A stretch of 64,000 nucleotides of DNA from a virus (taxonomy: Duplodnaviria; Heunggongvirae; Uroviricota; Caudoviricetes), in IMG/VR virus record IMGVR_UViG_2681813318_000003; one strand, 5' to 3'. Both the position numbers and the translations under genes were made by a program. The notes beneath the pieces are model-generated. The model was not told the DNA's origin. It was given only the letters and a program-made list of their open reading frames with translations, and did not search any database. The stretch's first letter is position 1, and every line of letters starts with the position of its first letter. Shown piece after piece: positions 19,871 to 48,844 of the stretch.

Positions 19871-20266
19871 TTAAGCGAATACGCTTTCAGGGATTAAGGT
19901 GTCGGCAGGAATGCCAGAGGTAATGCGCAGACCGTACTGGCCAATCCAGGTGGTGCTGGTGTTCAGGCTGGAGGCGAATACGGTGTTAACCATATTCATC
20001 ATGGTTTCAAACACCTCTTCATCAACCTGGCGGAAGTAGTTCTCGATTTTCAGCAGCAGCGGGTCAGTTGCATCGAGAATGGACTGGTATTGAGTCGCGT
20101 ACTCGCCGCCGGAGGCATCACCTTTACGCACGATCGTACTGGCCTGTACTTCGGCACCAGTTTCGGTGTTGTACGTAACAACGGTGATTTTTGCCACATT
20201 CTTACCTTCGGCGGTTTCAGAGGCATAGTAAACATCAACTGTCAGTTTTTCGCGTTTAACGGTCAT
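19871..20266 (-). CDS. Hypothetical early protein
   Basis: 131-aa ORF with SD GGAGAG; class B palindrome and a terminator lie upstream. Confidence 0.4.
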   Translation of the reverse strand: MTVKREKLTVDVYYASETAEGKNVAKITVVTYNTETGAEVQASTIVRKGDASGGEYATQYQSILDATDPLLLKIENYFRQVDEEVFETMMNMVNTVFASSLNTSTTWIGQYGLRITSGIPADTLIPESVFA

Positions 20267-20330
20267 TTCACTCTCCGTAGTGTCTTGATTATTTTTCTAT
20301 TTTATAATCGTAGGTATGTACTTACAATAC

Positions 20331-20358
20331 AAAAAAGCCCCGTAAGGATGGCGGGGCT
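20331..20358 (-). terminator. Rho-independent terminator
   Basis: AGCCCCGCCATCCTTACGGGGCT hairpin followed by TTTTTTG on the minus strand. Confidence 0.6.
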
Positions 20359-20392
20359 GTCGTACTGTCGACTAATTACCACTTGCACATTA

Positions 20393-20704
20393 TCAGGCTA
20401 TTGCCATCACTGATGCTCTCTGAATTTCTTGCTGGGCCACGCGGTTAACTTCCATCAAGGCCAGTTCGAGCTGATGTTCCGGCCACATTCTTTGAAATGC
20501 CACCCATCCTTTTCCACGCTGGCGACGAACATTCATTACATAACGAGTAAAGGTGTTTTTATCGAAAGACACCGCTGTTTCACGGAACAGACGAATAGAA
20601 GTTCCATTGGCAACGATGTCTAGCAAAGTTAATTGAGCAACCAGTGCAGGCTTCTCTTTTCTCTTCTGGTCTTTGTCCAGACCAAGAACCAATGATTTTT
20701 TCAT
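20393..20704 (-). CDS. Hypothetical early protein
   Basis: ORF trimmed to ATG 20704 (MKKSLVLG) with SD ACGGAG; class A motif overlaps the leader. Confidence 0.4.
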   Translation of the reverse strand: MKKSLVLGLDKDQKRKEKPALVAQLTLLDIVANGTSIRLFRETAVSFDKNTFTRYVMNVRRQRGKGWVAFQRMWPEHQLELALMEVNRVAQQEIQRASVMAIA

Positions 20705-20857
20705 CACAACTCCGTAAACAACTTGTTTTCTCAATGGCGTAAATAATACCAGTAAGAAAACGGCTACAAAGCATAATGATCAGGTGCATGATCGATATGC
20801 AGGTTCCTCCCTGCGGCTATAGAGAAATTAAGCCAGCATTGCTGGCTTTGGTTGGGG

Positions 20858-21187
20858 TTACTCGAATACTTCAAGAAACTCCTGAACGTCCCAATGCTGG
20901 ACGAGGTGAAGATAGACCTTAGAAATCACGTCATTTTCGCTATCGCATGTGAAGTAGTACTTCTGGCTGCGGTTGTATGTGTCCACACAAAATTCGCTCA
21001 TATCCATAAAGTCAGCATCTTCACCCATGTCGCAAATCATCAAAGCAGGTGCGTCATCACGAGTCATCAGCTCAAGCACCCACCGCGAATTGATCAGAGT
21101 GGAAGACCAACCTTCTAACTCATAAAACTGATCAAACTCTTTTTGAGTTAATTTCTTGATTTGGTTGATGTCGATATTTGCAAACAT
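20858..21187 (-). CDS. Small acidic protein (candidate anti-restriction or DNA-mimic type)
   Basis: ORF trimmed to ATG 21187 (MFANIDI) with SD AAGGA; D/E-rich, about 109 aa; class A motif upstream. Confidence 0.4.
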   Translation of the reverse strand: MFANIDINQIKKLTQKEFDQFYELEGWSSTLINSRWVLELMTRDDAPALMICDMGEDADFMDMSEFCVDTYNRSQKYYFTCDSENDVISKVYLHLVQHWDVQEFLEVFE

Positions 21188-38316: not shown

Positions 38317-38547
38317 TCATTGTGATTGATTATTTTCTCGACCATGTAGTTGAACATTCAAGGCAAACACCTCATTGATCAACTCACCTAAAAGCTGTTC
38401 AACAAGTTCGCGATGCTCGCCAAGATGCAAGCACTTAATTGCCCACTCGTACAAGTTGAAAGCCTGCTCACGATCTTTCATCATTTCACGAGCCTGGGCC
38501 AGAAAATCGCTCTCTACGAGCGCAACGACATTAGTCGGGTATGACAT
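38317..38547 (-). CDS. Hypothetical small protein
   Basis: ORF 38317..38571 trimmed to ATG 38547 (MSYPTNV) with SD AAGGA. Confidence 0.35.
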   Translation of the reverse strand: MSYPTNVVALVESDFLAQAREMMKDREQAFNLYEWAIKCLHLGEHRELVEQLLGELINEVFALNVQLHGRENNQSQ

Positions 38548-38653
38548 GTTGGTTTCCTTAAAGTGGTTCATAAAATCGATTTTAAAGCGTCTGGGAAGGG
38601 GTTCTAGTGGATTCTGTAGTGATGTTCAGGTCTGGAGTCTCTGATACAAAACA

Positions 38654-38710
38654 GCCTGCTTCCGTATATTAATAATTAATATGTAGTTATTTATATATAC
38701 AGAAGCAGGC
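38654..38710. terminator. Long AT-loop hairpin (bidirectional terminator-like), paralog of 9982-10040
   Basis: GCCTGCTTCCGTATATT..TTATATATACAGAAGCAGGC. Confidence 0.45.
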
Positions 38711-38732
38711 TAATTACAGACGCCAGAACAAA

Positions 38733-39326
38733 CTAAGCAGCCTTCTTTGATGGTCTTTTTTTCCTGATCACATTCGCAGGATCATACCCTCCCAGACTTT
38801 TCATGACGTCCAAAGGGATCTTGCTTATAGAGTGCCCAGCGTCCTGACAGAATCCTCGAAAAACAACGAGCATACTGCCACCGGGGTTGATGTTTACTTC
38901 TACCTGACCCAAATTGACGTCAGGCTCGACAAACGCTACGCGGCCACCAGACAGAATAATCGTCTCATTCGCACACTCTGTTGCACGCTCATACCACTTT
39001 GTATCGAGGGATTGAGGAATTAGCATCACTGTTGTAACTCCGCGAGCCTGCTCACGTATAGCCGCATCAATCCAGGGGGAGATTTTGGAGTAGGGTGGAT
39101 TGAGGAAGGCAATTGTACCTGGCTGTCCCCATTCAGATTTCAAAGCATCACGCTCAACGCCTATGAAAATAGGCAGCTTTGCGTTGTCCTTGTTGCAGGC
39201 AACGTCAACATCAAATGTCACTCCAAGATAACGTTGAATGGCAGAAAACAGCCAATCAGGTGTTCTCCAGAGGTCACGAAGAGAGTTGTCGCGCTTTCGC
39301 TGTTTGATTTTTTCGGCTGCAATCAT
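38733..39326 (-). CDS. Phage-type Dam-like DNA N6-adenine methyltransferase, orphan
   Basis: 197 aa with FLNPPYSK catalytic motif; size and layout of the small phage Dam family. Confidence 0.6.
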   Translation of the reverse strand: MIAAEKIKQRKRDNSLRDLWRTPDWLFSAIQRYLGVTFDVDVACNKDNAKLPIFIGVERDALKSEWGQPGTIAFLNPPYSKISPWIDAAIREQARGVTTVMLIPQSLDTKWYERATECANETIILSGGRVAFVEPDVNLGQVEVNINPGGSMLVVFRGFCQDAGHSISKIPLDVMKSLGGYDPANVIRKKRPSKKAA

Positions 39327-39336
39327 CTTCTTTCTC

Positions 39337-39357
39337 GATAGGTAAGTGATTACCTAT
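39337..39357. promoter_or_regulatory. Class B palindromic motif (representative copy)
   Basis: GATAGGTAAGTGATTACCTAT, 8-bp arms ATAGGTAA/TTACCTAT, about 12 nt upstream of the Dam ATG. Related copies near 963-982 (perfect 20-bp palindrome TAGTAAGTATATACTTACTA), 4542-4559, 7964-7983, 10003-10017, 13253-13274, 20309-20331, 33070-33089, 37121-37145, 44177-44198, 48890-48913, 53571-53593, 59511-59535, 63035-63062. Confidence 0.5.
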
Positions 39358-39509
39358 TTTTGCATTTGATTTTATGTCTGGCAATCAAATAAAACGCGCC
39401 AGAAATGCAAACGAGAAGCTCTCTGGCGCGTTTTTGTGGTGCTGGGTATGTGATTGGCTTACCCAGCACTATAAAGCTCTCTATGGGCTTTATTTTCAGT
39501 AGGGGGACG

Positions 39510-40319
39510 TCATCCAATAGTGTACTCCGCTACAAACTTCTTAACGATCGGTGATTCTTCGTTCAATGTTAGATTTCCACCGTCTCTAACGGCAATTCCT
39601 GTCGCTGGAAATACAGCCATCATTTGCCCAGCCTGAGTTGACGCAGTGTTAAGCGGATACGGTTTTTCTGGATTGCTCATTAAAGCAATCTTAATACTAT
39701 TACTTGTAGCCTTCTTTTCTGTGAGAAGGTGTCTCATGGAAATTACCGTGTAAACACTAATATCTGGACCTCCGCTAAACCAATTAAGAAGGTTTAATAT
39801 CTTATCCTTTGCTTTGACAGGCGCGTTTTCGTAAGTGTCTAAGAAAATATCTTTTTCTAAGCCTGCTTTATTGAAAAACAAATCATCTTTATCACTTAAA
39901 GTAAAACGAGGACCTCTTGCAGTACGAGCTTTTTTATTTGTATTGCTATCATTTGACTGTTGAACTTTTAATTCATCATTAACCTCAACACACTCTTCAA
40001 CCTCAATAAACCCCAATTGTTCTGGCTCGTTTTCGGCAGATTCAACACTTTCAGCCTTAATTACGTTTATAGGCTCATGAGCTAACTCCAACTCATTTAA
40101 AGCGGAGCTGAAATCACCTGCTTTTTCTTCATTGAACAGTTCTTCGGCAACATCATCAGAACTCATGGCTACGCCAGCATCGAGGCCGAGAAGCAGATCG
40201 TCAATATCATCAGTATTTTCAACCTGTGCAGCTTTTTTTACTGGTTCATCAAGTGATTGCAACATGGCTGTCAGCTCATCCAGATCATCATTTGTCATTA
40301 CATTTTCAACCGAACTCAT
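39510..40319 (-). CDS. Hypothetical protein with highly acidic N-terminal half
   Basis: 269-aa ORF with SD AAGGAG; N-terminal 120 aa rich in D/E. Confidence 0.4.
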   Translation of the reverse strand: MSSVENVMTNDDLDELTAMLQSLDEPVKKAAQVENTDDIDDLLLGLDAGVAMSSDDVAEELFNEEKAGDFSSALNELELAHEPINVIKAESVESAENEPEQLGFIEVEECVEVNDELKVQQSNDSNTNKKARTARGPRFTLSDKDDLFFNKAGLEKDIFLDTYENAPVKAKDKILNLLNWFSGGPDISVYTVISMRHLLTEKKATSNSIKIALMSNPEKPYPLNTASTQAGQMMAVFPATGIAVRDGGNLTLNEESPIVKKFVAEYTIG

Positions 40320-40440
40320 GTAAGTCTCCTTCTGTTTAGTTGCATTTGCGTTTCGATGGCTACATTTTGACTAAACCTATCAGGCGGAAAAGTATTAAAT
40401 ACAGGCAGGAAATGATTGAAAGGCGACTGTTCTTTAAAAG

Positions 40441-41527: not shown

Positions 41528-42172
41528 CTAATGAACGGTTACTCGGCCACAGAACCGGTTTTCTATCTTTTCTACAGCGTTATCTAGCATTCTCATCACT
41601 GATCTGGCTCTTGCTTCAACCGTGCGATATCGGTTGGAAACGACGAAGGTTTGCAGATCTCCCCTTTGCGGATGCAGGTGAATTTTTGTCAGTTCCCCGC
41701 ACATCAACGCATCAATACGAGCGACATACAGACGGTCTAATGATGCTCGTTGTGATCGCAAGTAATCTCGCTCTGAGAGAGCGACTCCCGGGCGTAAGCC
41801 AGCAATGGCGTTAAAGTTTGAAATAGCAGTTTTGTGGCAAAACTTTTCGATATCGAGGGCTAACTCAATACATCGATCTTCATTGGTATGGCCGACCAAA
41901 TCCAACGTGTAGGCCATAACATCAGCAGGTGTGCGATCGATAACAAAGCCTTCAACACCACGCGTAAGTAGCTCTATATGCTTTGCTATTTCCATTTGAA
42001 TCTGAAGCCGCTCATATAGAGGCATAGACTCACCTACTCGAACACCGAGGCGGCTCATCAAACTTCCGACACCAGCATCCACGTAAGGGATTCCGTAATG
42101 TTTGTCGATATATTTAGCCAGGGTTGTTTTCCCACTGCCCTGAGCACCAGTGATCCCAATCCGGTAATCCAT
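41528..42172 (-). CDS. P-loop nucleotide kinase (putative dNMP kinase)
   Basis: Walker A GITGAQGSGKTT at the N-terminus, 214 aa, start coupled to the DHFR stop within a nucleotide-metabolism operon. Confidence 0.5.
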   Translation of the reverse strand: MDYRIGITGAQGSGKTTLAKYIDKHYGIPYVDAGVGSLMSRLGVRVGESMPLYERLQIQMEIAKHIELLTRGVEGFVIDRTPADVMAYTLDLVGHTNEDRCIELALDIEKFCHKTAISNFNAIAGLRPGVALSERDYLRSQRASLDRLYVARIDALMCGELTKIHLHPQRGDLQTFVVSNRYRTVEARARSVMRMLDNAVEKIENRFCGRVTVH

Positions 42173-42648
42173 TACGACCTTCTGTATACGATCTGCGAAA
42201 AGCCAGGCTCTTCCTCGCTGGCTCGTTGGGTATAAGCTGTTTCAACAGGCACAAAGCCTAAGTTACGCATCATGCTTGCCGGGAAGAATGCATCGGCGTT
42301 TGGTACATCAACGCCGATGTGGGAGAGCCAAATCTCTTCAACATGCGGCATGAATAGCGAGTAAATTTGTTCCCCGCCAATCACCCACACAGGCTCTGGT
42401 AATCGCAACACATCATCCACACCAGCAGGGTAGAATCCATTTGGTACAAAGCCATGAGAGCGCGTCAAAACGAGGTTATGACGCTCTGGAAGAGGGCGTT
42501 TGAGACTTTCCATCGTTTTACGCCCCATAACAACAGTGGCGTTTTTGGTGAGTCTCTTAAATAGCTTCAGATCGGTAGAACAACGCCAGGGCAGTTCGTT
42601 CGCTATGCCGATCTCATAGTTACGGCCAACAGCAGCTATCATCTTCAT
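42172..42648 (-). CDS. Dihydrofolate reductase
   Basis: 158 aa, MIAAVGRNYEIG..LPW N-terminus and VVMGRKTMESL motif typical of DHFR; adjacent to thymidylate synthase. Confidence 0.75.
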   Translation of the reverse strand: MKMIAAVGRNYEIGIANELPWRCSTDLKLFKRLTKNATVVMGRKTMESLKRPLPERHNLVLTRSHGFVPNGFYPAGVDDVLRLPEPVWVIGGEQIYSLFMPHVEEIWLSHIGVDVPNADAFFPASMMRNLGFVPVETAYTQRASEEEPGFSQIVYRRS

Positions 42649-43058
42649 TTGCTCACCTCATAGATGACCGGTCTATGATGAGAGTCAGCTAAAGCGGCAC
42701 GGAGTCGAGGATCGTGCACCAGCGCAGCGATAAGCAGATCGCCTTTATGCTCCGCTAATGTGCGCTTAATATGCTTCTCATAACTGGTGCCATTCGGTAC
42801 GAGATGAAGCCAGTCGTAATCAACGCCAAAATCTTTCAGCCATCGTTTAGTGGGCGCTTCAAGAGTTTCAGAGCGGCTACTGATAAGCACCACTTCAGCC
42901 CCTGAGCGAGCAAAACCACGCAACATACGGCTGGTGGGGAAAATGAGTTCATCACCGGCAATGAGCTGGCCTGCATCCGCGTCAGATACAGATTTACGAT
43001 GACTGGTATTTGCCAGCACACCTTCAATTTCGCATAAGACATACATACCTCTTGCCAT
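42645..43058 (-). CDS. Hypothetical protein
   Basis: ORF 42645..43106 trimmed to ATG 43058, which is coupled to the thymidylate synthase stop. Confidence 0.3.
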   Translation of the reverse strand: MARGMYVLCEIEGVLANTSHRKSVSDADAGQLIAGDELIFPTSRMLRGFARSGAEVVLISSRSETLEAPTKRWLKDFGVDYDWLHLVPNGTSYEKHIKRTLAEHKGDLLIAALVHDPRLRAALADSHHRPVIYEVSK

Positions 43059-43059
43059 A

Positions 43060-44163
43060 TCACACCGCCACTGGAACCTTGATCCACGGTAGAGGGTCAT
43101 AGCCAAGAATTAAAACCTCGTCCCATTTGAAATCATCCAACTCTGACCATTCATGAGGGAAAATAACGACCGGATCTGAATGCTCTGGAGCCTGTCGTTT
43201 CATTAGCTCACACACACCTTCCATTTGGTTGTTGTACAAATGCACGTCAAAGCCAAAATGTACAAATGCACCGGCCATGTGACCCGTAATCTTCGCGAGA
43301 AAATGAGTGAGAATGCCATAGCCAGCAATATTGAATGGCATACCAACAAAAGTGTCTACGCTACGCTGTACGAGGCAGGAGTTGAGGATGCGTTTGGGGA
43401 TTCCAAGTTCATCCAGTTCAGCTTCAGTAACACTGCCGTCCATCTCCAGATCGTATAGCATCTTGGTGTAGATAGACTCATAACCGAGGCGACTGTGTTG
43501 AAGACCAATGTCAGTTGCCATCGTTAAACGGGTTTCAAAATCAAGCTCACGACTCCACAAAGAGAAGACAAAGTGGCAAGGTGGCAGTTTCATATCCTCA
43601 AGCTCGCCTACGTTCCATGCGTTAAGCATGATACGACGATCGGTGGGGTTCGTGCGCAGTGTATCGACAATACGCTGTAGCTGATCGATTTCACGGGACA
43701 GCACTACGCGATCTTCACTGATACCCAGGTATCCCTCGACTTTGTACCCGCGTTCACGGAAAGTATCGATCTTGCTCAGATATTCACTATGGCTCACGAT
43801 GCGGGTATCTTCCCATCGACGCCACTGCTTACCGTAAACCGGCCCCAAATCGCCATTCTCATCGGCCCATGCATCCCAAATCTTAACGCCGTTATCCTTG
43901 AGAAATTGGATGTTGCCCGTGCCTTTCAGATACCACTCAAGTTCGACAAGCAGTGGCTTAAGATTTACCGCCTTTCCAGAAATAAGCGGCACAGTCCCAC
44001 CAGTAAGCATGTAGTAAGAGGGAACGTAGCAGGTGCTTAAAGTACCAGTGCCTGTGCGATCATCAGCCTGCACGCCGCTTTTAAGCACCGTCTCAATAAC
44101 TTTTGCATACGATGCGTTTGTTACCTGACCGTTCGTATGCTCACGATTCAAAAGGAGTGACAC
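43060..44163 (-). CDS. thyA: Thymidylate synthase (ThyA family) with two internal insertions
   Basis: DRTGTGT, WADENGDLGPVYGKQWR, NPTDRRIMLNAWNVGEL, catalytic LPPCHFVF, QRSVDTFVGMPFNIAGY, GYDPLPWIKVPVAV; probable GTG start at 44163 with SD GAGG; about 100 extra residues relative to E. coli ThyA. Confidence 0.8.
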   Translation of the reverse strand: MSLLLNREHTNGQVTNASYAKVIETVLKSGVQADDRTGTGTLSTCYVPSYYMLTGGTVPLISGKAVNLKPLLVELEWYLKGTGNIQFLKDNGVKIWDAWADENGDLGPVYGKQWRRWEDTRIVSHSEYLSKIDTFRERGYKVEGYLGISEDRVVLSREIDQLQRIVDTLRTNPTDRRIMLNAWNVGELEDMKLPPCHFVFSLWSRELDFETRLTMATDIGLQHSRLGYESIYTKMLYDLEMDGSVTEAELDELGIPKRILNSCLVQRSVDTFVGMPFNIAGYGILTHFLAKITGHMAGAFVHFGFDVHLYNNQMEGVCELMKRQAPEHSDPVVIFPHEWSELDDFKWDEVLILGYDPLPWIKVPVAV

Positions 44164-44334
44164 AAAAACCTCACAAAGATAAGTAACCACTTATTCCTTA
44201 AGTGAGTTTACATTTATTGAGGGAACAAGGCCAGATAGATAAAAAAATGGTGGCCATAGGCCACCAAAAACGAATAGTTGTTTCAGAAATTTAACGCGCC
44301 AACGCAATATACACAGATAGATAACTACCTACAA

Positions 44335-45204
44335 TTATTTTTTGATCATTCCGTACATTGCTGAGGCTTTAGCTTGCTCAACAAAGGAGGATAAATCGAC
44401 ATCACTATAGGTTGGAGACTTCAGAATCTTTCCATCGGAAATTCGAAAACCGATCATCTTATCGGTGCCATCAGCATGGCGAAATCCCAGGTCAGAAGAG
44501 TCGTATTTGCAGTTGGCCACAGCATGGCGACGCTCTTCGGCATCTGCAGGCCATAATTTTGTCATGTTGGACCGATGAATTTCGCCAACCAGCTCGACGA
44601 CATTGATACCGAGGAAATCAGCCAGTCGATAGGTCATCATGCACGCCACATAGATTTTGTTCATTACACGGCGCAGTTCCTGAATCAGCTCAGAATCCTT
44701 AACAGTCTTGTTCTCAAGTTTATCTGCCAGCTCTTCGAGCATACATGACGCCTCACGAGCTTCCTGAAATGGCATTGCCATATCATCGAAAACAGTGTTA
44801 CCAGGCACAAAAATTGTCTGCATAAAGCGATCAATGCTCTGTTCCTGCGTGTAATAGGTCATGCCGGTAGAAATACCACCTTTGATGGCGACCATCGTAC
44901 CAACACCAACGTATAAAAAGTCGGCCATTGCATCCAGCAGTTGCTCAATATCCCCATTCATTGCGGCTGGAATACCTTCCACTACAGCTTCTTCATGAAT
45001 CAGGCTTGCACGGAGACGAAGCAGCTCTGGTGTCGGCATAACGCGTCTCGGATGCTGGAAGAGTTCATGAAACTGATCGACCATCTTGTAAATACTTTCA
45101 GTAGCTACACCATGACCTTCATGCAACTCATATGGTTCTGGCTTAAATCCAATGAGTCGATCGGTGGCAAGTTTCAGGTGGTCAGTCAGTTTGGTAAAGT
45201 TCAT
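44335..45204 (-). CDS. Hypothetical protein in nucleotide-metabolism operon
   Basis: 289-aa ORF with SD AAGGA; no confident motif recognised. Confidence 0.4.
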   Translation of the reverse strand: MNFTKLTDHLKLATDRLIGFKPEPYELHEGHGVATESIYKMVDQFHELFQHPRRVMPTPELLRLRASLIHEEAVVEGIPAAMNGDIEQLLDAMADFLYVGVGTMVAIKGGISTGMTYYTQEQSIDRFMQTIFVPGNTVFDDMAMPFQEAREASCMLEELADKLENKTVKDSELIQELRRVMNKIYVACMMTYRLADFLGINVVELVGEIHRSNMTKLWPADAEERRHAVANCKYDSSDLGFRHADGTDKMIGFRISDGKILKSPTYSDVDLSSFVEQAKASAMYGMIKK

Positions 45205-45281
45205 GCTAGTTTTGTTCCTTCTTAATTCTTGTGATCCATTGTGGCCCAGCGTTGCCAGGCCACATAATGCTTTGTATCGGT

Positions 45282-46424
45282 TTACAGGTCTGCAAACTGG
45301 CTTAGAGAAGCCTTATCCACGGTAGAATCGATCTGACCTACCAGATATGTGCTTTGCTCTGCCTCTTGTGGTGCAATTTGCAGTGTGTCGGTTAACAACC
45401 ACTTGTTCATCCAGACCAGCGGATCTGTGGTAACTTCTGGAAATAAAGCCTTCAGGCCAAGACGATTCATAGCCAGATTGGTGCGGTATTTTACATAGGT
45501 CTTCAGAATATCCGCGTTTAAACCAATCATCGAACCGTCTTTGAAGAGATAGTCTGCCCAGTTCATTTCTTGTTCGGCGACTGATTTCATGGTGTCGTAA
45601 ATGACGTTTTCTTCATCAGCAGCAATCTCTTTCCACAATAAACCTTCGCGACCGGTACGCATGAAGCGGATCATGCGTTCAGTTCCTTCGCAATGCAGAG
45701 CTTCATCACGGGCAATAAAGCGCATAATTTTGGTGTTGCCCTCAAGCAACTTCCGTTCGCCAAAGGCAAACGTACATGCAAAACTTACATAGAAACGGAT
45801 CGCCTCAAGCGCATTAATGGACACCAACGTGCGGAAAAGCTGACGGTGCAAAGGGTATGGCTCCCAGCCATATTCATTTACGTACAGACGTTCAAACTCT
45901 TTCTCACCTAACGACTGGCGCTCGCAGGTCATCCCATAAAGCCTGTCATATTCAGCAGAGATACTGATCGCTCGGTTGATGATTTCTTCATCCGTAACAA
46001 TACCGTTAAAAACAATGCTCGGATCGTCCACCATGCCACGAATAATGTGGGTGTAGCTGCGGCTATGGATAGTCTCAGAGAAAGACCATGTTTCAACCCA
46101 CGTTTCCAGTTCAGGAATAGAGATAAGCGGCAGCAGCGTTGCATTTGGGCTACGTCCCTGAACTGAATCGAGTAACGTTTGATAACGGAGATTGCTCAGA
46201 AAAATGTGACGTTCGTGGTCCCGCAGCTTCGTGTTGAAGTCGATACGATCGCTCGAAATATCAACTTCTTCCGGCCGCCAGAAGAAAGACAATTGACGTT
46301 CAATCAACTTTTCAAAATCACGGTATTTTTGCTGATCGTAACGTGCCACGTTGACAGATTGTCCGAGGAACATAGGCTCTTTGGTTGCATCATTAGCACC
46401 CAAACGGAACGTTGAATATGACAT
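45282..46424 (-). CDS. nrdB: Ribonucleotide reductase class Ia small subunit
   Basis: 380 aa, co-linear with E. coli NrdB ([39 protein letters not shown], iron ligand region EALH..GT, C-terminal SYLVGQIDS). Confidence 0.9.
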
Positions 46425-46504
46425 GTGTTTTCCTTTTGCTTATTGATGTGTTTAAACAAGTTGTTATCTTATTTGTTTAAACAAGGTTTACAAATCAAAG
46501 AGAA

Positions 46505-46523
46505 GGTGGGGATATCCCCCACC
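46505..46523 (-). terminator. Rho-independent terminator after nrdA
   Basis: GGTGGGGGATATCCCCACC perfect hairpin followed by TTCTCTTTGATTTG on the minus strand. Confidence 0.55.
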
Positions 46524-46528
46524 ATATG

Positions 46529-48844
46529 TCAGATTTTGCAGGCTCCGTCGCACTCATCTTCTGGCTCGACGGCTACAGCTTGCGTCAGTGGATTCTGCGG
46601 TTCGTCGTCATCACGCTTTCCTGCCCCATCTCTGGTGTTGTGGTAGTAAAGCGTTTTAACTCCCATCTTGTAGGCGAGAAGCAAATCTGACAGTAGCGTC
46701 ATCATTGGGACTTTATCGCCTTCAAAGCGAGAAGGGTCATAGTTGGTATTGGCTGAAATAGCCTGGTCAAAGAACTTCTGGATGATCGCCACCTTTGTCA
46801 GATAGCCGCGGTTGTCCGGCATATCCCACAGGTATTCATACTGTTCCTTCAGTTTTTCAAACTCAGGCACGACCATCTTAACGATGCCGTCCTTAGAAGA
46901 TTTCACCGACACCGGGCCACGAGGCGGTTCGATGCCGTTGGTGGAATTAGTGATCTGGCTGGAAGTCTCGCATGGCATTTGTGCCGTCAGTGTGGAGTTG
47001 CGAAGGCCGTATTTTGCAATACGTTCACGCAGTTCTTCCCACGGCATCTTTAACTCAAAGTTGGTTTCGCCACTTTCGTCTAATGAAGAACGGTAATGGT
47101 CGATCGGCAACTGACCAATTGCGTACTTGGTCTGCTCAAACCAGTCACACTCACCTTTTGCTTCAGCAAGTCGGCAGCTGGCATCAAGAAGGTAATACTG
47201 GATAGCTTCGAACGTTTCATGCACCAGTTTATTGCCAGCGGTATCAGAATAACGAACGCCATTCTTTGCCAGGTAATAAGCAAAGTTGGTTACACCAATT
47301 CCCAAGCTACGACGAGCTTTGGCAGGCACTGCGGCTGCCTCCATCGGATAGTCTTGATAATCCAGTAACGAATCCAGTGCAGCAACGGCATAGAACGCCA
47401 CCTCTTTAAGAGACTCCAGTGAACGGATGGCTCCGAGGTTAAAAGCGGATAAAGTGCATAGCGCGATCTCACCGTTCGGGTCGTCGGTAAATGCCAGTGG
47501 ACGAGTGGGTAGAGTGATCTCCATGCACAGGTTTGACTGGCGGACAGGTGCAAGAGCAGGAATGAAAGCGCCATGCTCATTAATATGATCGACGTTCGCA
47601 ATATAAATTCGGCCCGTGGACGCTCGTTCCTGCATCAGAGATGAGAACAGCTCAATGGCAGACACTGACTTCTTGCGAATTGAATCATCGGCTTCGTATT
47701 TATGGTACAGCTTTTCAAACAGATCCTGGTCTGTGAAGAAGGCTTCGTACATATCAGGCACATCATGCGGGCTGAACAGAGTGATGTTCTCGCTTCTGAC
47801 GAGTCGACGGTACATTAGACGGTTACTCATGACGCCGTAATCAAGATGGCGAACGCGGTTTTCATCAATACCACGGTTATTTTTCACCACCAGCAGACTT
47901 TCAACTTCAAGATGCCAGATCGGGTAAAACGCTGTTGCTGCGCCACCACGAACACCACCTTGCGAACAAGATTTAACAGCCGTCTGGAAATGCTTCAGGA
48001 ATGGAATAACTCCGGTATGGGTGGCTTCACCATTGCGGATCTCGCTGCCCAGCGCACGGATACGGCCAAAACCAATACCAATTCCAGCACGACGTGAAAC
48101 GTAGTCGATAATTGCGGCTGAAGCTGCACTAATCCCTTTCAGACTATCGCCAGACTCAATCAGCACACAACTGGAGAACTGACGGGTTGGAGTACGGACG
48201 CCGGCCATGATTGGTGTGGGCAGAGACAGTTTGAACGTACTTGTAACGTCATAGAAACCTTTGACCATCTCCATACGTGTTTTACCAGCGCAGTCGTCTT
48301 CCCAATTCTGGAACAGACACATGCCTACCAGCATATAGATATGTTGCGGCCCCTCATGAATCTCACCAGTAACACGGTTTTGAACGAGGTATTTGCTTTG
48401 CAACTGCACCGTAGCTGCATAGCCAAAAAGATCGTCACGTTTCGGCTTAATGTAATTGCCGAGTTCTTCGATCTCTTCAAACGAATAATGTGTCAGCAAA
48501 TCCTTGTCATAAACGCCCTTGTTAACGTTCTTGACAATGTGTTGGTAGAAGTTCGGATAGTCGTAACGACCGAAGGCATCTTTGCGGATTTTAAAAATGT
48601 TCAGGCGGGCAGCCACCTGTGAGTAATTTGGTGCTTCTGGTGAGATCAAATCAGCGGCAGATTTAACCAAAGCCTCATGCAACTGGCTGGTGGTAATCCC
48701 ATCAAAAATGCTGGCCGCAGCTCCCATTGCTACAGCGGATGCGCTTACACCACGAATGCCTTCTACGCCATACATTACGACGCGGTTGTATTTTTCTTCG
48801 GATAACGGCTCTGTTTGGCCGTTACGTTTTACGATGCTTATCAT
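46529..48844 (-). CDS. nrdA: Ribonucleotide reductase class Ia large subunit
   Basis: 771 aa, N-terminal ATP-cone region and active-site region NLCMEI, C-terminal Cys pair; directly upstream of nrdB. Confidence 0.9.
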   Translation of the reverse strand: MISIVKRNGQTEPLSEEKYNRVVMYGVEGIRGVSASAVAMGAAASIFDGITTSQLHEALVKSAADLISPEAPNYSQVAARLNIFKIRKDAFGRYDYPNFYQHIVKNVNKGVYDKDLLTHYSFEEIEELGNYIKPKRDDLFGYAATVQLQSKYLVQNRVTGEIHEGPQHIYMLVGMCLFQNWEDDCAGKTRMEMVKGFYDVTSTFKLSLPTPIMAGVRTPTRQFSSCVLIESGDSLKGISAASAAIIDYVSRRAGIGIGFGRIRALGSEIRNGEATHTGVIPFLKHFQTAVKSCSQGGVRGGAATAFYPIWHLEVESLLVVKNNRGIDENRVRHLDYGVMSNRLMYRRLVRSENITLFSPHDVPDMYEAFFTDQDLFEKLYHKYEADDSIRKKSVSAIELFSSLMQERASTGRIYIANVDHINEHGAFIPALAPVRQSNLCMEITLPTRPLAFTDDPNGEIALCTLSAFNLGAIRSLESLKEVAFYAVAALDSLLDYQDYPMEAAAVPAKARRSLGIGVTNFAYYLAKNGVRYSDTAGNKLVHETFEAIQYYLLDASCRLAEAKGECDWFEQTKYAIGQLPIDHYRSSLDESGETNFELKMPWEELRERIAKYGLRNSTLTAQMPCETSSQITNSTNGIEPPRGPVSVKSSKDGIVKMVVPEFEKLKEQYEYLWDMPDNRGYLTKVAIIQKFFDQAISANTNYDPSRFEGDKVPMMTLLSDLLLAYKMGVKTLYYHNTRDGAGKRDDDEPQNPLTQAVAVEPEDECDGACKI

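Follow-up and report, generated by a model that had tools for sequence, protein, structure and literature searches.

The locus described here raises the question of whether a phage-borne ThyA protein carrying two sizeable insertions is still a thymidylate synthase (TS), or whether the additional residues point instead to altered chemistry, to a mobile element or to some further function. The gene occupies positions 43060..44163 on the minus strand of the window (that is, of the entire 64,000-nucleotide stretch of viral DNA analysed), which is ~98% identical to Escherichia phage Cyrano, an SSU5-like phage-plasmid. It appears in the list of open reading frames (ORFs) as a continuous minus-strand frame ending at 43060, and its product, which matches PF00303, TIGR03284 and phrog_160, consists of 367 residues encoded between a GTG start and a TGA stop. 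The longest version of this ORF opens at a GTG at 44190; the true start, however, is the GTG at 44163, because alignment with SSU5 and pJN2-26 places a TTG at the matching position in both, with a conserved GAGG ahead of it, and because the codon equivalent to 44190 is GTA in both and hence is not a start there. In the window the corresponding GAGG, a Shine-Dalgarno sequence read directly from the DNA at 44169..44172 (minus strand), lies 5 nt 5' of the GTG and is kept in SSU5 and pJN2-26. Database homologues are likewise 367 residues long. Two numberings are used below: a 376-residue numbering for the boundaries of alignment blocks and a 367-residue numbering for residue positions.

A phmmer comparison with PDB chains divides the protein into three blocks, in which (by the 376-residue numbering) positions 27-127, 165-212 and 270-376 correspond to positions 3-102, 106-153 and 160-264, respectively, of E. 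coli ThyA, with 44% identity over the aligned columns. This confirms that the gene encodes a ThyA protein with two insertions, and the block boundaries agree with where the first-pass annotation had placed them, namely after the QWR region and between the catalytic cysteine region and the QRS motif. The same annotation had put the combined length of the insertions at roughly 100 residues, which proves too high. Compared with E. coli ThyA and other 264-residue bacterial TSs (EC 2.1.1.45; PF00303, TIGR03284), the 367-residue protein has gained 15 residues at the N-terminus, 34 after QWRxW and 51 within the hairpin past the catalytic-cysteine strand; thus the excess of 103 residues is made up of 85 in the two insertions, the 15 at the N-terminus and 3 that are scattered. 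The N-terminal extension (44119..44163, minus strand; delimited from the phmmer blocks) lengthens the first helix, which in the AF2 model runs over residues 11-29, residues 1-6 having a pLDDT below 50; among SSU5-like relatives the extension shows an amino-acid identity of only 56-69%.

Its family scores identify the protein as a ThyA-type TS: it scores 260.4 bits against Pfam PF00303 (cutoff 24.3; E 2e-77), 215.1 bits against TIGR03284 (cutoff 108.35) and 316 bits against the thymidylate synthase family phrog_160, and it reaches the cutoffs of none of the narrower equivalogs NF002497, NF002499, NF002496 and NF010393. The first-pass statement that all ThyA catalytic motifs are present is borne out by the retention of 18 out of 18 key residues, which in E. 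coli numbering are R21, E58, W80, W83, Y94, R126, R127, C146, H147, Q165, R166, S167, D169, N177, D205, H207, Y209 and the C-terminal residue; the catalytic and binding residues are, moreover, all conserved across the 114 closest full-length homologues, which constitute the sample used throughout to assess distribution. The nucleophile and phosphate-binding set corresponds to C196, H197, R36, R176, R177, R267 and S268 in the 367-residue numbering, where C196 (E. coli C146), encoded at 43576..43578 (minus strand) within the motif PPCH, is invariant in the family alignment. Both R176 and R177 are conserved; their equivalents in TS reach into the active site of the partner subunit, TS being an obligate homodimer with shared active sites. 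Among the residues of the folate site and of hydride transfer, whose relevance is established TS enzymology, E58, W80, W83, Y94, D169, D205, H207 and Y209 are all kept, as is the C-terminal tail: the alignment places PVAV, the TS element that closes over the folate site, at 43063..43074 (minus strand), and the C-terminus reads IKVPVAV here versus IKAPVAI in E. coli. Finally, Asn278, encoded at 43330..43332 (minus strand) within PFNIA, aligns with E. coli N177, on which the preference for dUMP over dCMP, or for uracil over cytosine, depends (PMC8670742).

The predicted structure agrees with this assignment. The AF2 model has a pLDDT of 95.3 and a pTM of 0.93, and in a Foldseek comparison with E. 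coli TS it yields a TM score of 0.94 when normalised to the target and 0.68 when normalised to the query, which indicates a TS fold. Among SSU5-like relatives the ThyA core is under strong purifying selection (pN 0.055-0.12; saturation of the synonymous sites precludes dN/dS ratios, in place of which pN and pS are given here). Judged from sequence and predicted structure, then, the protein is very probably an ordinary ThyA-type thymidylate synthase and almost certainly active.

The first insertion (residues 119-155, DTRIV...DRVVL; 43699..43809, minus strand) replaces 3 residues with 37, a net gain of 34, immediately past the QWRRW motif, and is modelled as a strand, two short helices and a β-hairpin. 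When its family profile is compared with the PDB, the sole match is 3V8H, the crystallised ThyA of Burkholderia thailandensis (NF010393/PRK13821), which contains a homologous segment aligned end to end (E 2.6e-6); a single-sequence phmmer search of the PDB finds no match, so that the profile is needed to reach it. Consistent with this, the insertion fits the pattern ...RG(Y/F)...VV..IDQL that follows QWRxW in a long cellular ThyA subfamily. The protein itself scores only 137.4 bits against NF010393/PRK13821, versus a cutoff of 576; in other words, the insertion is common to both although the query is no member of that subfamily. A Pfam search with this insertion alone, at E values up to 10, returns two chance-level matches only. 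Insertion 1 is a small β/α subdomain that sits just after QWRxW, where an indel hot spot is known.

The second insertion (residues 204-260, SRELDFETR...IPKRIL; 43384..43554, minus strand) replaces 6 residues with 57, a net gain of 51, in the hairpin that connects the catalytic-cysteine strand (PPCHFVFSLW) to the strand leading to QRS. It is predicted to form a three-helix module (helices 209-225, 231-242 and 247-253), and the block has an AF2 pLDDT of at least 95. Its two ends are anchored by conserved residues--S/T-R-E-L...R at the start and LD...(I/V)P.R.L at the end--and the middle varies greatly among homologues, both in sequence and in length (37-80 residues). It is subject to purifying selection (pN 0.11-0.16, pS saturated), as are the two insertions considered together (pN 0.02-0.23, pS saturated). 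Pfam finds no match to insertion 2 alone at E values up to 10; its profile has no significant relative among PDB sequences (best E 0.48); and among 1.84 billion representative proteins the profile matches five, all of them ThyA proteins or frameshifted ThyA fragments, and no other protein. Outside of the phage-plasmid clade the profile reaches one distant cluster only (P0042, E 3.5e-7), and homology of insertion 2 beyond that clade is suggested by its position and by the short anchor motifs. Literature searches for a description of either insertion found none.

How widespread the insertions are bears directly on how they should be interpreted. Insertion 2 occurs in 69 of the 114 sampled homologues, in 67 of which it is accompanied by insertion 1. 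Both are present in all of the SSU5-like phage-plasmids sampled (77-99% identity) and also in SPN3US-like and Erwinia jumbo phages (37-40% identity), and viral TS models in BFVD resemble the query more closely (TM 0.80-0.87, normalised to the query) than does E. coli TS (0.68). Since insertion 2 is hardly ever seen without its partner, insertion 1 is probably the older of the two, insertion 2 having been added later in a phage lineage. In a neighbour-joining tree based on core columns, sequences with and without insertion 2 are interleaved; this tree is too crude to distinguish one gain followed by losses from repeated gains. The first-pass suggestion that the enzyme is set apart by its insertions is thus not supported, given both their joint presence in more than half of the sample (67/114) and the homology of insertion 1 to the cellular 3V8H segment; their frequency among phage ThyA proteins is, in addition, the very alignment result that had been named beforehand as speaking against unusualness. 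The insertions are additions to the surface, typical of the lineage, which do not affect the active site, and there is no sign of changed chemistry, because they are common to many phage enzymes and because insertion 1 is found in a crystallised bacterial enzyme as well.

The neighbouring genes, all on the minus strand, suggest the setting in which the enzyme would act. Reading in the direction of transcription, the conserved order is nrdAB-MazG-thyA-HAD-dfrA51-kinase. The class Ia ribonucleotide reductase (RNR) genes, identified from the ORFs and the syntenic SSU5 and Cyrano annotation, span 45282..48844 (nrdB at 45282..46424 and nrdA at 46529..48844). These are followed by a gene for a MazG/PRA-PH-like nucleoside triphosphate pyrophosphohydrolase (44335..45204; Pfam, PHROG and Cyrano annotation), between which and thyA there is a terminator-like hairpin with a T-run (44248..44266, from a reading of the sequence). 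Downstream of thyA is a HAD-type, PNKP-phosphatase-like gene (42645..43058; phrog_5387, SSU5 annotation, and a PF25109 score of 23 bits, which is below the cutoff), whose ATG lies 1 nt past the thyA stop. Two genes downstream is a dihydrofolate reductase (DHFR) of the DfrA51 type (42172..42648; PF00186, and NF047324 at 338 bits versus a cutoff of 322), DfrA51 having been found to be functional experimentally (PMC12217456), and then comes a P-loop (AAA_28) nucleotide-kinase-like gene (41528..42172; Pfam, NCBIfam and PHROG matches). The same gene order recurs in a Photobacterium element whose ThyA is 51% identical. In such a module, ThyA would serve nucleotide supply in an SSU5-like E. coli phage-plasmid alongside class Ia RNR, the MazG-like protein, the HAD phosphatase, DfrA51 and the P-loop kinase: it would convert dUMP and 5,10-methylene-tetrahydrofolate to dTMP and dihydrofolate, and DfrA51 would recycle the dihydrofolate, which is a product of true TS only.

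The alternative that fares best refines, rather than contradicts, the interpretation of the protein as a plain TS. It holds that insertion 2, with or without insertion 1, is a dedicated protein-protein or oligomerisation module, either tethering TS to other enzymes of dNTP metabolism (DHFR, RNR, the phosphatase or the kinase) or building a higher-order assembly. Insertion 2 begins directly after the equivalent of human TS Y202, a residue at the perimeter of the dimer interface (PMC9831607); it is confidently structured and under purifying selection; it is kept in both phage-plasmids and jumbo phages, and all but two of its 69 occurrences are accompanied by insertion 1; and in the phage-plasmids thyA is tightly packed with its pathway partners. 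Yet the variability of its middle, in length as well as in sequence, would be unusual for a conserved docking surface, and no partner gene is consistently adjacent: within the SPN3US thyA neighbourhood Pfam recognises neither DHFR nor HAD, yielding only a weak MazG match. Across the family, moreover, the net charge of insertion 2 is the same as that of the core, and that of the insertions generally does not differ from it, which provides no clue to binding of nucleic acids or partners. Such a dedicated module is therefore best regarded as a tentative proposal, less probable than not by a considerable degree. Somewhat more doubtful is its more specific form, in which insertion 2 is a phage-specific adaptor at the TS dimer perimeter that remodels quaternary structure or docks TS to phage enzymes such as DfrA51. 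Within the preferred interpretation of an ordinary TS, insertion 2 would most likely buttress or extend the dimer or provide a docking surface, the chemistry being unchanged.

Far less probable is that this is a repurposed ThyA homologue, namely a dUMP (or dCMP) hydroxymethylase supplying a modified base for phage DNA. Some ThyA homologues of phages are hydroxymethylases (PMC8670742, PMC8989533), the pyrimidine hydroxymethylases of the TS superfamily including SPO1 gp29, T4 gp42 and MilA; the adjacent MazG-like, HAD phosphatase and P-loop kinase genes could loosely mimic the dTTPase/dTMPase/dNMP-kinase set of hmdU phages (PMC8989533); and SPO1 gp29, like the query, is long (383 residues). The resemblance to characterised hydroxymethylases is nevertheless limited. 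SPO1 gp29 and T4 gp42 have in common with the query the superfamily fold, the catalytic cysteine, R166/S167 and Y94, but the query is closer to TSs than to either, with 21% identity to gp29 and 24% to gp42 as against 44% to E. coli ThyA; both lack W83, H147, Q165, D205 and the C-terminal tail, as goes with an open folate site, and the query keeps all of these; and the two insertions are absent from both, gp29 owing its additional length to its C-terminus. The equivalent of N177 rules out a preference for dCMP, a functional type of DHFR is encoded nearby whereas hydroxymethylation leaves the folate unoxidised, and within 20 kb on each side of the gene in Cyrano (98% identical) no dCMP deaminase, 5-HMUDK, aGPT-Pplase or glycosyltransferase is annotated. 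The family scores and discriminating residues thus uphold the earlier preference for a true TS over a hydroxymethylase, with which the nearby DHFR is consistent.

Still less likely, if only slightly, is that the insertions are in-frame remnants of a mobile element: a degenerate intein, a homing-endonuclease ORF or a translated former intron. Group I introns are known to invade td genes (as in T4 td, with I-TevI), and the first-pass annotation had placed insertion 2 near the intron site of T4 td. This holds only loosely: the T4 td exon junction (...VDVFLG|LPFNIASY) corresponds to G274|M275, which is uninterrupted here (43341..43342, minus strand); this site belongs to another structural element, 14 codons downstream from where insertion 2 ends, and no link between the insertion and the T4 td intron was found. 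An Rfam scan of the whole window finds no family reaching its gathering score and hence no intron, and Pfam searches of the insertions at E values up to 10 find no endonuclease or intein domain, nor any other apart from the two chance-level matches to insertion 1. The insertions, with 37 and 57 residues, are furthermore far below the length of any mini-intein; both are confidently folded within the enzyme model and under purifying selection; and insertion 1 belongs to a crystallised cellular TS. As for a catalytically dead or moonlighting ThyA-fold protein with a structural or regulatory role, nothing specific favours it beyond the general possibility that attends any enlarged homologue, and it is most improbable given the conservation of all catalytic and binding residues across the 114 homologues, the low pN of the core and the synteny of thyA with RNR and DHFR genes.

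On the interpretation of the protein as an ordinary TS, the dTMP made by SSU5-type phage-plasmids is ordinary and the extra length of thyA calls for no exotic explanation, a conclusion of little weight for basic biology. The analysis also delineates a large, mostly phage-borne ThyA clade whose members have, at the margin of the dimer interface, a conserved three-helix insertion for which there is no solved structure. And because thyA lies two genes from dfrA51, a trimethoprim-resistance DHFR gene of these phage-plasmids, the element would carry a full thymidylate cycle of its own into clinical Enterobacterales, with possible consequences for antifolate susceptibility and for thyA-loss phenotypes.

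Among the closest known systems are the TSs of SPN3US-like and Erwinia jumbo phages (such as SPN3US_0229, with 338 residues) and of phiKZ-like phages (201phi2-1), which, like the query, have both insertions at the same sites and whose second insertion has similar anchors (TRELS..ER ... LEIPRRIL). They differ from it in the sequences and lengths of their insertions, and the phages that encode them are lytic jumbo phages rather than phage-plasmids. In T4-like homologues, the site of insertion 1 holds a shorter insertion. T4 td itself (286 residues) is, like the query, a phage ThyA gene adjoining a DHFR gene (frd) and RNR genes, but its product lacks insertion 2 and the gene is split by a group I intron, whereas the gene described here has none. 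If insertion 2 were indeed an adaptor that docks TS to such enzymes as DfrA51, the resulting assembly would be comparable, though non-covalent, to the bifunctional DHFR-TS enzymes or to the T4 dNTP-synthetase complex.

The 367-residue protein encoded by thyA (window 43060..44163, minus strand) is very probably an ordinary thymidylate synthase (TS), into which two insertions have been built. The unbroken minus-strand ORF and its end at 43060 were confirmed. Its longest form begins with a GTG at 44190; from sequence comparison, the true start is the GTG at 44163 given by the first-pass annotation. A GAGG lies upstream of the latter, at 44172..44169 (-); Salmonella phage SSU5 and pJN2-26 share this GAGG, have TTG at the position of GTG 44163 and have GTA as the codon equivalent to 44190; and database homologues are 367 aa long. 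A phmmer search of PDB sequences aligns the query with E. coli ThyA in three blocks, from whose boundaries the insertion sizes were derived: insertion 1 (43699..43809 (-), residues 119-155) consists of 37 residues in place of 3 (+34), and insertion 2 (43384..43554 (-), residues 204-260) of 57 in place of 6 (+51). Of the 103-residue excess, what remains is 15 extra residues at the N-terminus plus three residues scattered elsewhere. Hence the earlier description of two insertions totalling about 100 residues is accurate except for the total, which is 85 by these block boundaries.

The query scores 260 bits against PF00303, 316 bits against phrog_160 and 215 bits against the TIGR03284 equivalog (cutoff 108), and its GenBank relatives are annotated as thymidylate synthases. 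As claimed from inspection, the ThyA catalytic motifs are all present: the query has each of the 18 residues mapped from E. coli ThyA (R21, E58, W80, W83, Y94, R126, R127, C146, H147, Q165, R166, S167, D169, N177, D205, H207, Y209 and the C-terminal residue, E. coli numbering), and these are near-invariant across 114 full-length homologues. The suggestion that this ThyA might have been repurposed as a hydroxymethylase (i.e., an enzyme making hydroxymethylated dUMP or dCMP) fares poorly. Replacing N177 by Asp shifts the preference to dCMP (PMC8670742); the equivalent query residue is Asn. Among characterised hydroxymethylases, SPO1 gp29 (dUMP) and T4 gp42 (dCMP) share 21% and 24% identity with the query, versus 44% for E. 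coli ThyA; unlike the query, both lack an insertion at either site and have replaced W83, H147, Q165 and D205, all of which the query retains. Both also lack the C-terminal PVA(V/I) tail, and gp29 owes its extra length to an extension at the C-terminus. The AlphaFold2 model of the query, built from 92 sequences, has very high confidence (pLDDT 95.3, pTM 0.93), and its core fits E. coli TS with a TM of 0.94 normalised to the target. The hmdU pathway has as companion genes a dCMP deaminase, 5-HMUDK, aGPT-Pplase and a glycosyltransferase (PMC8989533); the annotation of Escherichia phage Cyrano (OV696614.1) shows none of these in the 20 kb to either side. Two genes downstream of thyA lies a DHFR gene (42172..42648 (-)) that passes the cutoff of the NCBIfam DfrA51 model (338 bits versus 322). 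By established enzymology, hydroxymethylation leaves folate unoxidised, so it is a true TS that needs a working DHFR, and the argument drawn earlier from this neighbour holds. In view of the scores, residues, alignments, model, DHFR and absence of annotated companion genes in Cyrano, a hydroxymethylase is very improbable. Nor is any link seen in the sequence to the T4 td intron, near whose site insertion 2 had been placed: the td exon junction (VDVFLG followed by LPFNIASY) corresponds to that between G274 and M275 of the query (43342/43341), 14 codons past the end of insertion 2 and inside the next conserved motif, Rfam yields no family in the whole window, and no endonuclease or intein signature is seen in either insertion.

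The DfrA51 type was defined from SSU5, where it is protein AFL47010.1, and has been shown to increase the MIC of trimethoprim for E. coli (PMC12217456); the window, whose DHFR reaches this model, therefore harbours a recognised trimethoprim-resistance determinant. The intervening HAD/PNKP-phosphatase-like gene, mechanically called as 42645..43106 (-) from TTG 43106, overlaps thyA by 47 nt; its annotated start in relatives is ATG 43058, 1 nt past the thyA stop, which suggests that the two genes may be translationally coupled. Its product matches phrog_5387 (unknown function) and, weakly, PNKP phosphatase domains, and is possibly a nucleotidase. Directly after the DHFR gene, overlapping it at base 42172, comes a P-loop protein (AAA_28; 41528..42172 (-)) with weak thymidylate/cytidylate kinase-like matches, plausibly a dNMP kinase. 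Cyrano annotates it as 'ABC transporter ATP-binding protein', a label that looks wrong. On the other side, the 145-nt gap between the MazG-like gene and thyA contains a strong terminator-like hairpin (44248..44266 (-); 8 bp, 6 GC, then a T-run), so that thyA and the genes downstream may form a separate transcription unit; a search of the minus strand of this gap for sigma-70-like promoters gave none.

Over positions 42000-45500, the window shares 97.8-98.7% identity with Escherichia phages CMS-2020a, Cyrano and PhiR41_1 and 76.5% with SSU5, which indicates that it is part of an SSU5-like E. coli phage-plasmid. SSU5, pJN2-26 and Cyrano share the order nrdA, nrdB, MazG-like pyrophosphohydrolase, thymidylate synthase, small HAD/PNKP-phosphatase-like protein, DHFR, P-loop protein, hypothetical protein and DnaQ-like exonuclease, with which the Pfam and PHROG assignments of the window ORFs agree. 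This module also occurs whole and in order in a 2.0-Mb Photobacterium ganghwense replicon (CP071326.1, 802763-819824), where ThyA identity falls to 51%, an indication that an SSU5-like element, integrated or carried by a chromid, exists beyond the Enterobacterales. In Cyrano, the near-identical counterpart of the query (20001..21104) is labelled 'ThyX Thymidylate synthase', evidently a misannotation because the gene is ThyA-type (PF00303). About 17 kb from thyA, Cyrano also has an annotated methionyl-tRNA synthetase gene (38367..40400), an uncommon thing for a temperate element to carry.

Both insertions are widespread among phage ThyA proteins, jumbo phages included, the alignment outcome that the first-pass annotation had named as speaking against its point. 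Among the 114 full-length proteins within the best 120 matches from a search of 5.8 billion proteins, 69 have insertion 2 (at least 25 extra residues), 66 have insertion 1 (at least 20) and 67 have both when insertion 1 is counted from 10 extra residues upwards; by that count, insertion 2 stands without insertion 1 in just two. This near-obligate co-occurrence points to insertion 1 as the earlier of the two and to possible packing of one against the other; in a crude neighbour-joining tree, sequences with and without insertion 2 interleave, which is compatible with one origin or several. Close relatives (52-99% identical) lie on contigs of about 100-120 kb from Escherichia, Salmonella, Klebsiella, Enterobacter, Raoultella, Providencia, Morganella and Xenorhabdus, which are SSU5-like phage-plasmids. 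The next-best matches in the phage collection (37-40% identity, about 340-356 aa) come from SPN3US-like Salmonella jumbo phages and from Erwinia, Cronobacter and Proteus jumbo phages; direct alignment finds both insertions in SPN3US_0229, and the one metagenomic example inspected lies on a 356-kb phage-like contig. BFVD models of viral TSs (201phi2-1, Yoloswag and others) reach TM 0.80-0.87 normalised to the query, versus 0.68 for E. coli TS, and therefore span part of the extra structure. Between the window and SSU5 or pJN2-26, synonymous differences have reached saturation (pS 0.6-1.0), and non-synonymous differences are 0.02-0.23 in insertion 1, 0.11-0.16 in insertion 2 and 0.055-0.12 in the core, which indicates that both insertions are kept as protein, if somewhat less tightly constrained than the core.

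Insertion 2 is predicted to form three helices (209-225, 231-242 and 247-253; block pLDDT at least 95), with conserved ends, (S/T)RE(L/M)...R and (L/M)D...(I/V)P.R.L, around a middle of about 37 to 80 residues across the family. It matches nothing in Pfam and has no relative in the PDB; among 1.84 billion representative proteins, its profile found five matches and none outside ThyA or frameshifted ThyA fragments. Two of the five (P0121 and P0122) are such fragments, in which ThyA sequence continues into out-of-frame residues; these public records reflect pseudogenes or mistakes in sequencing or assembly. The insertion begins directly after W203, which aligns with human TS Y202, a residue lining a pocket on the perimeter of the interface between monomers, into which F59' of the other subunit fits (PMC9831607). 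A literature search found no description of insertion 2 or of an insertion-bearing ThyA clade.

We propose that the query would act as a normal homodimeric TS, supplying dTMP during replication of the element and coupled to the element's own DHFR and RNR. Insertion 2 would be a helical module added along the edge of the dimer interface, where we infer a structural or docking role with the chemistry unchanged, and insertion 1 would enlarge the small domain, as in Burkholderia ThyA. In the AlphaFold2 model, insertion 1 comprises a strand extending from QWRRWEDTRIV, two short helices and a beta-hairpin, with the conserved pattern WxDTR(I/V)V...RGY.(V/I)(E/D)G...VV..REIDQ. The sole PDB protein that its profile matches is Burkholderia thailandensis ThyA (3V8H; E = 2.6e-6), end to end over residues 114-162, so that insertion 1 is a feature, already crystallised, of a cellular ThyA subfamily. 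The query itself falls outside the NCBIfam equivalog for the 3V8H subfamily (137 bits versus 576), and T4-like enzymes have, at the site of insertion 1, a shorter insertion.
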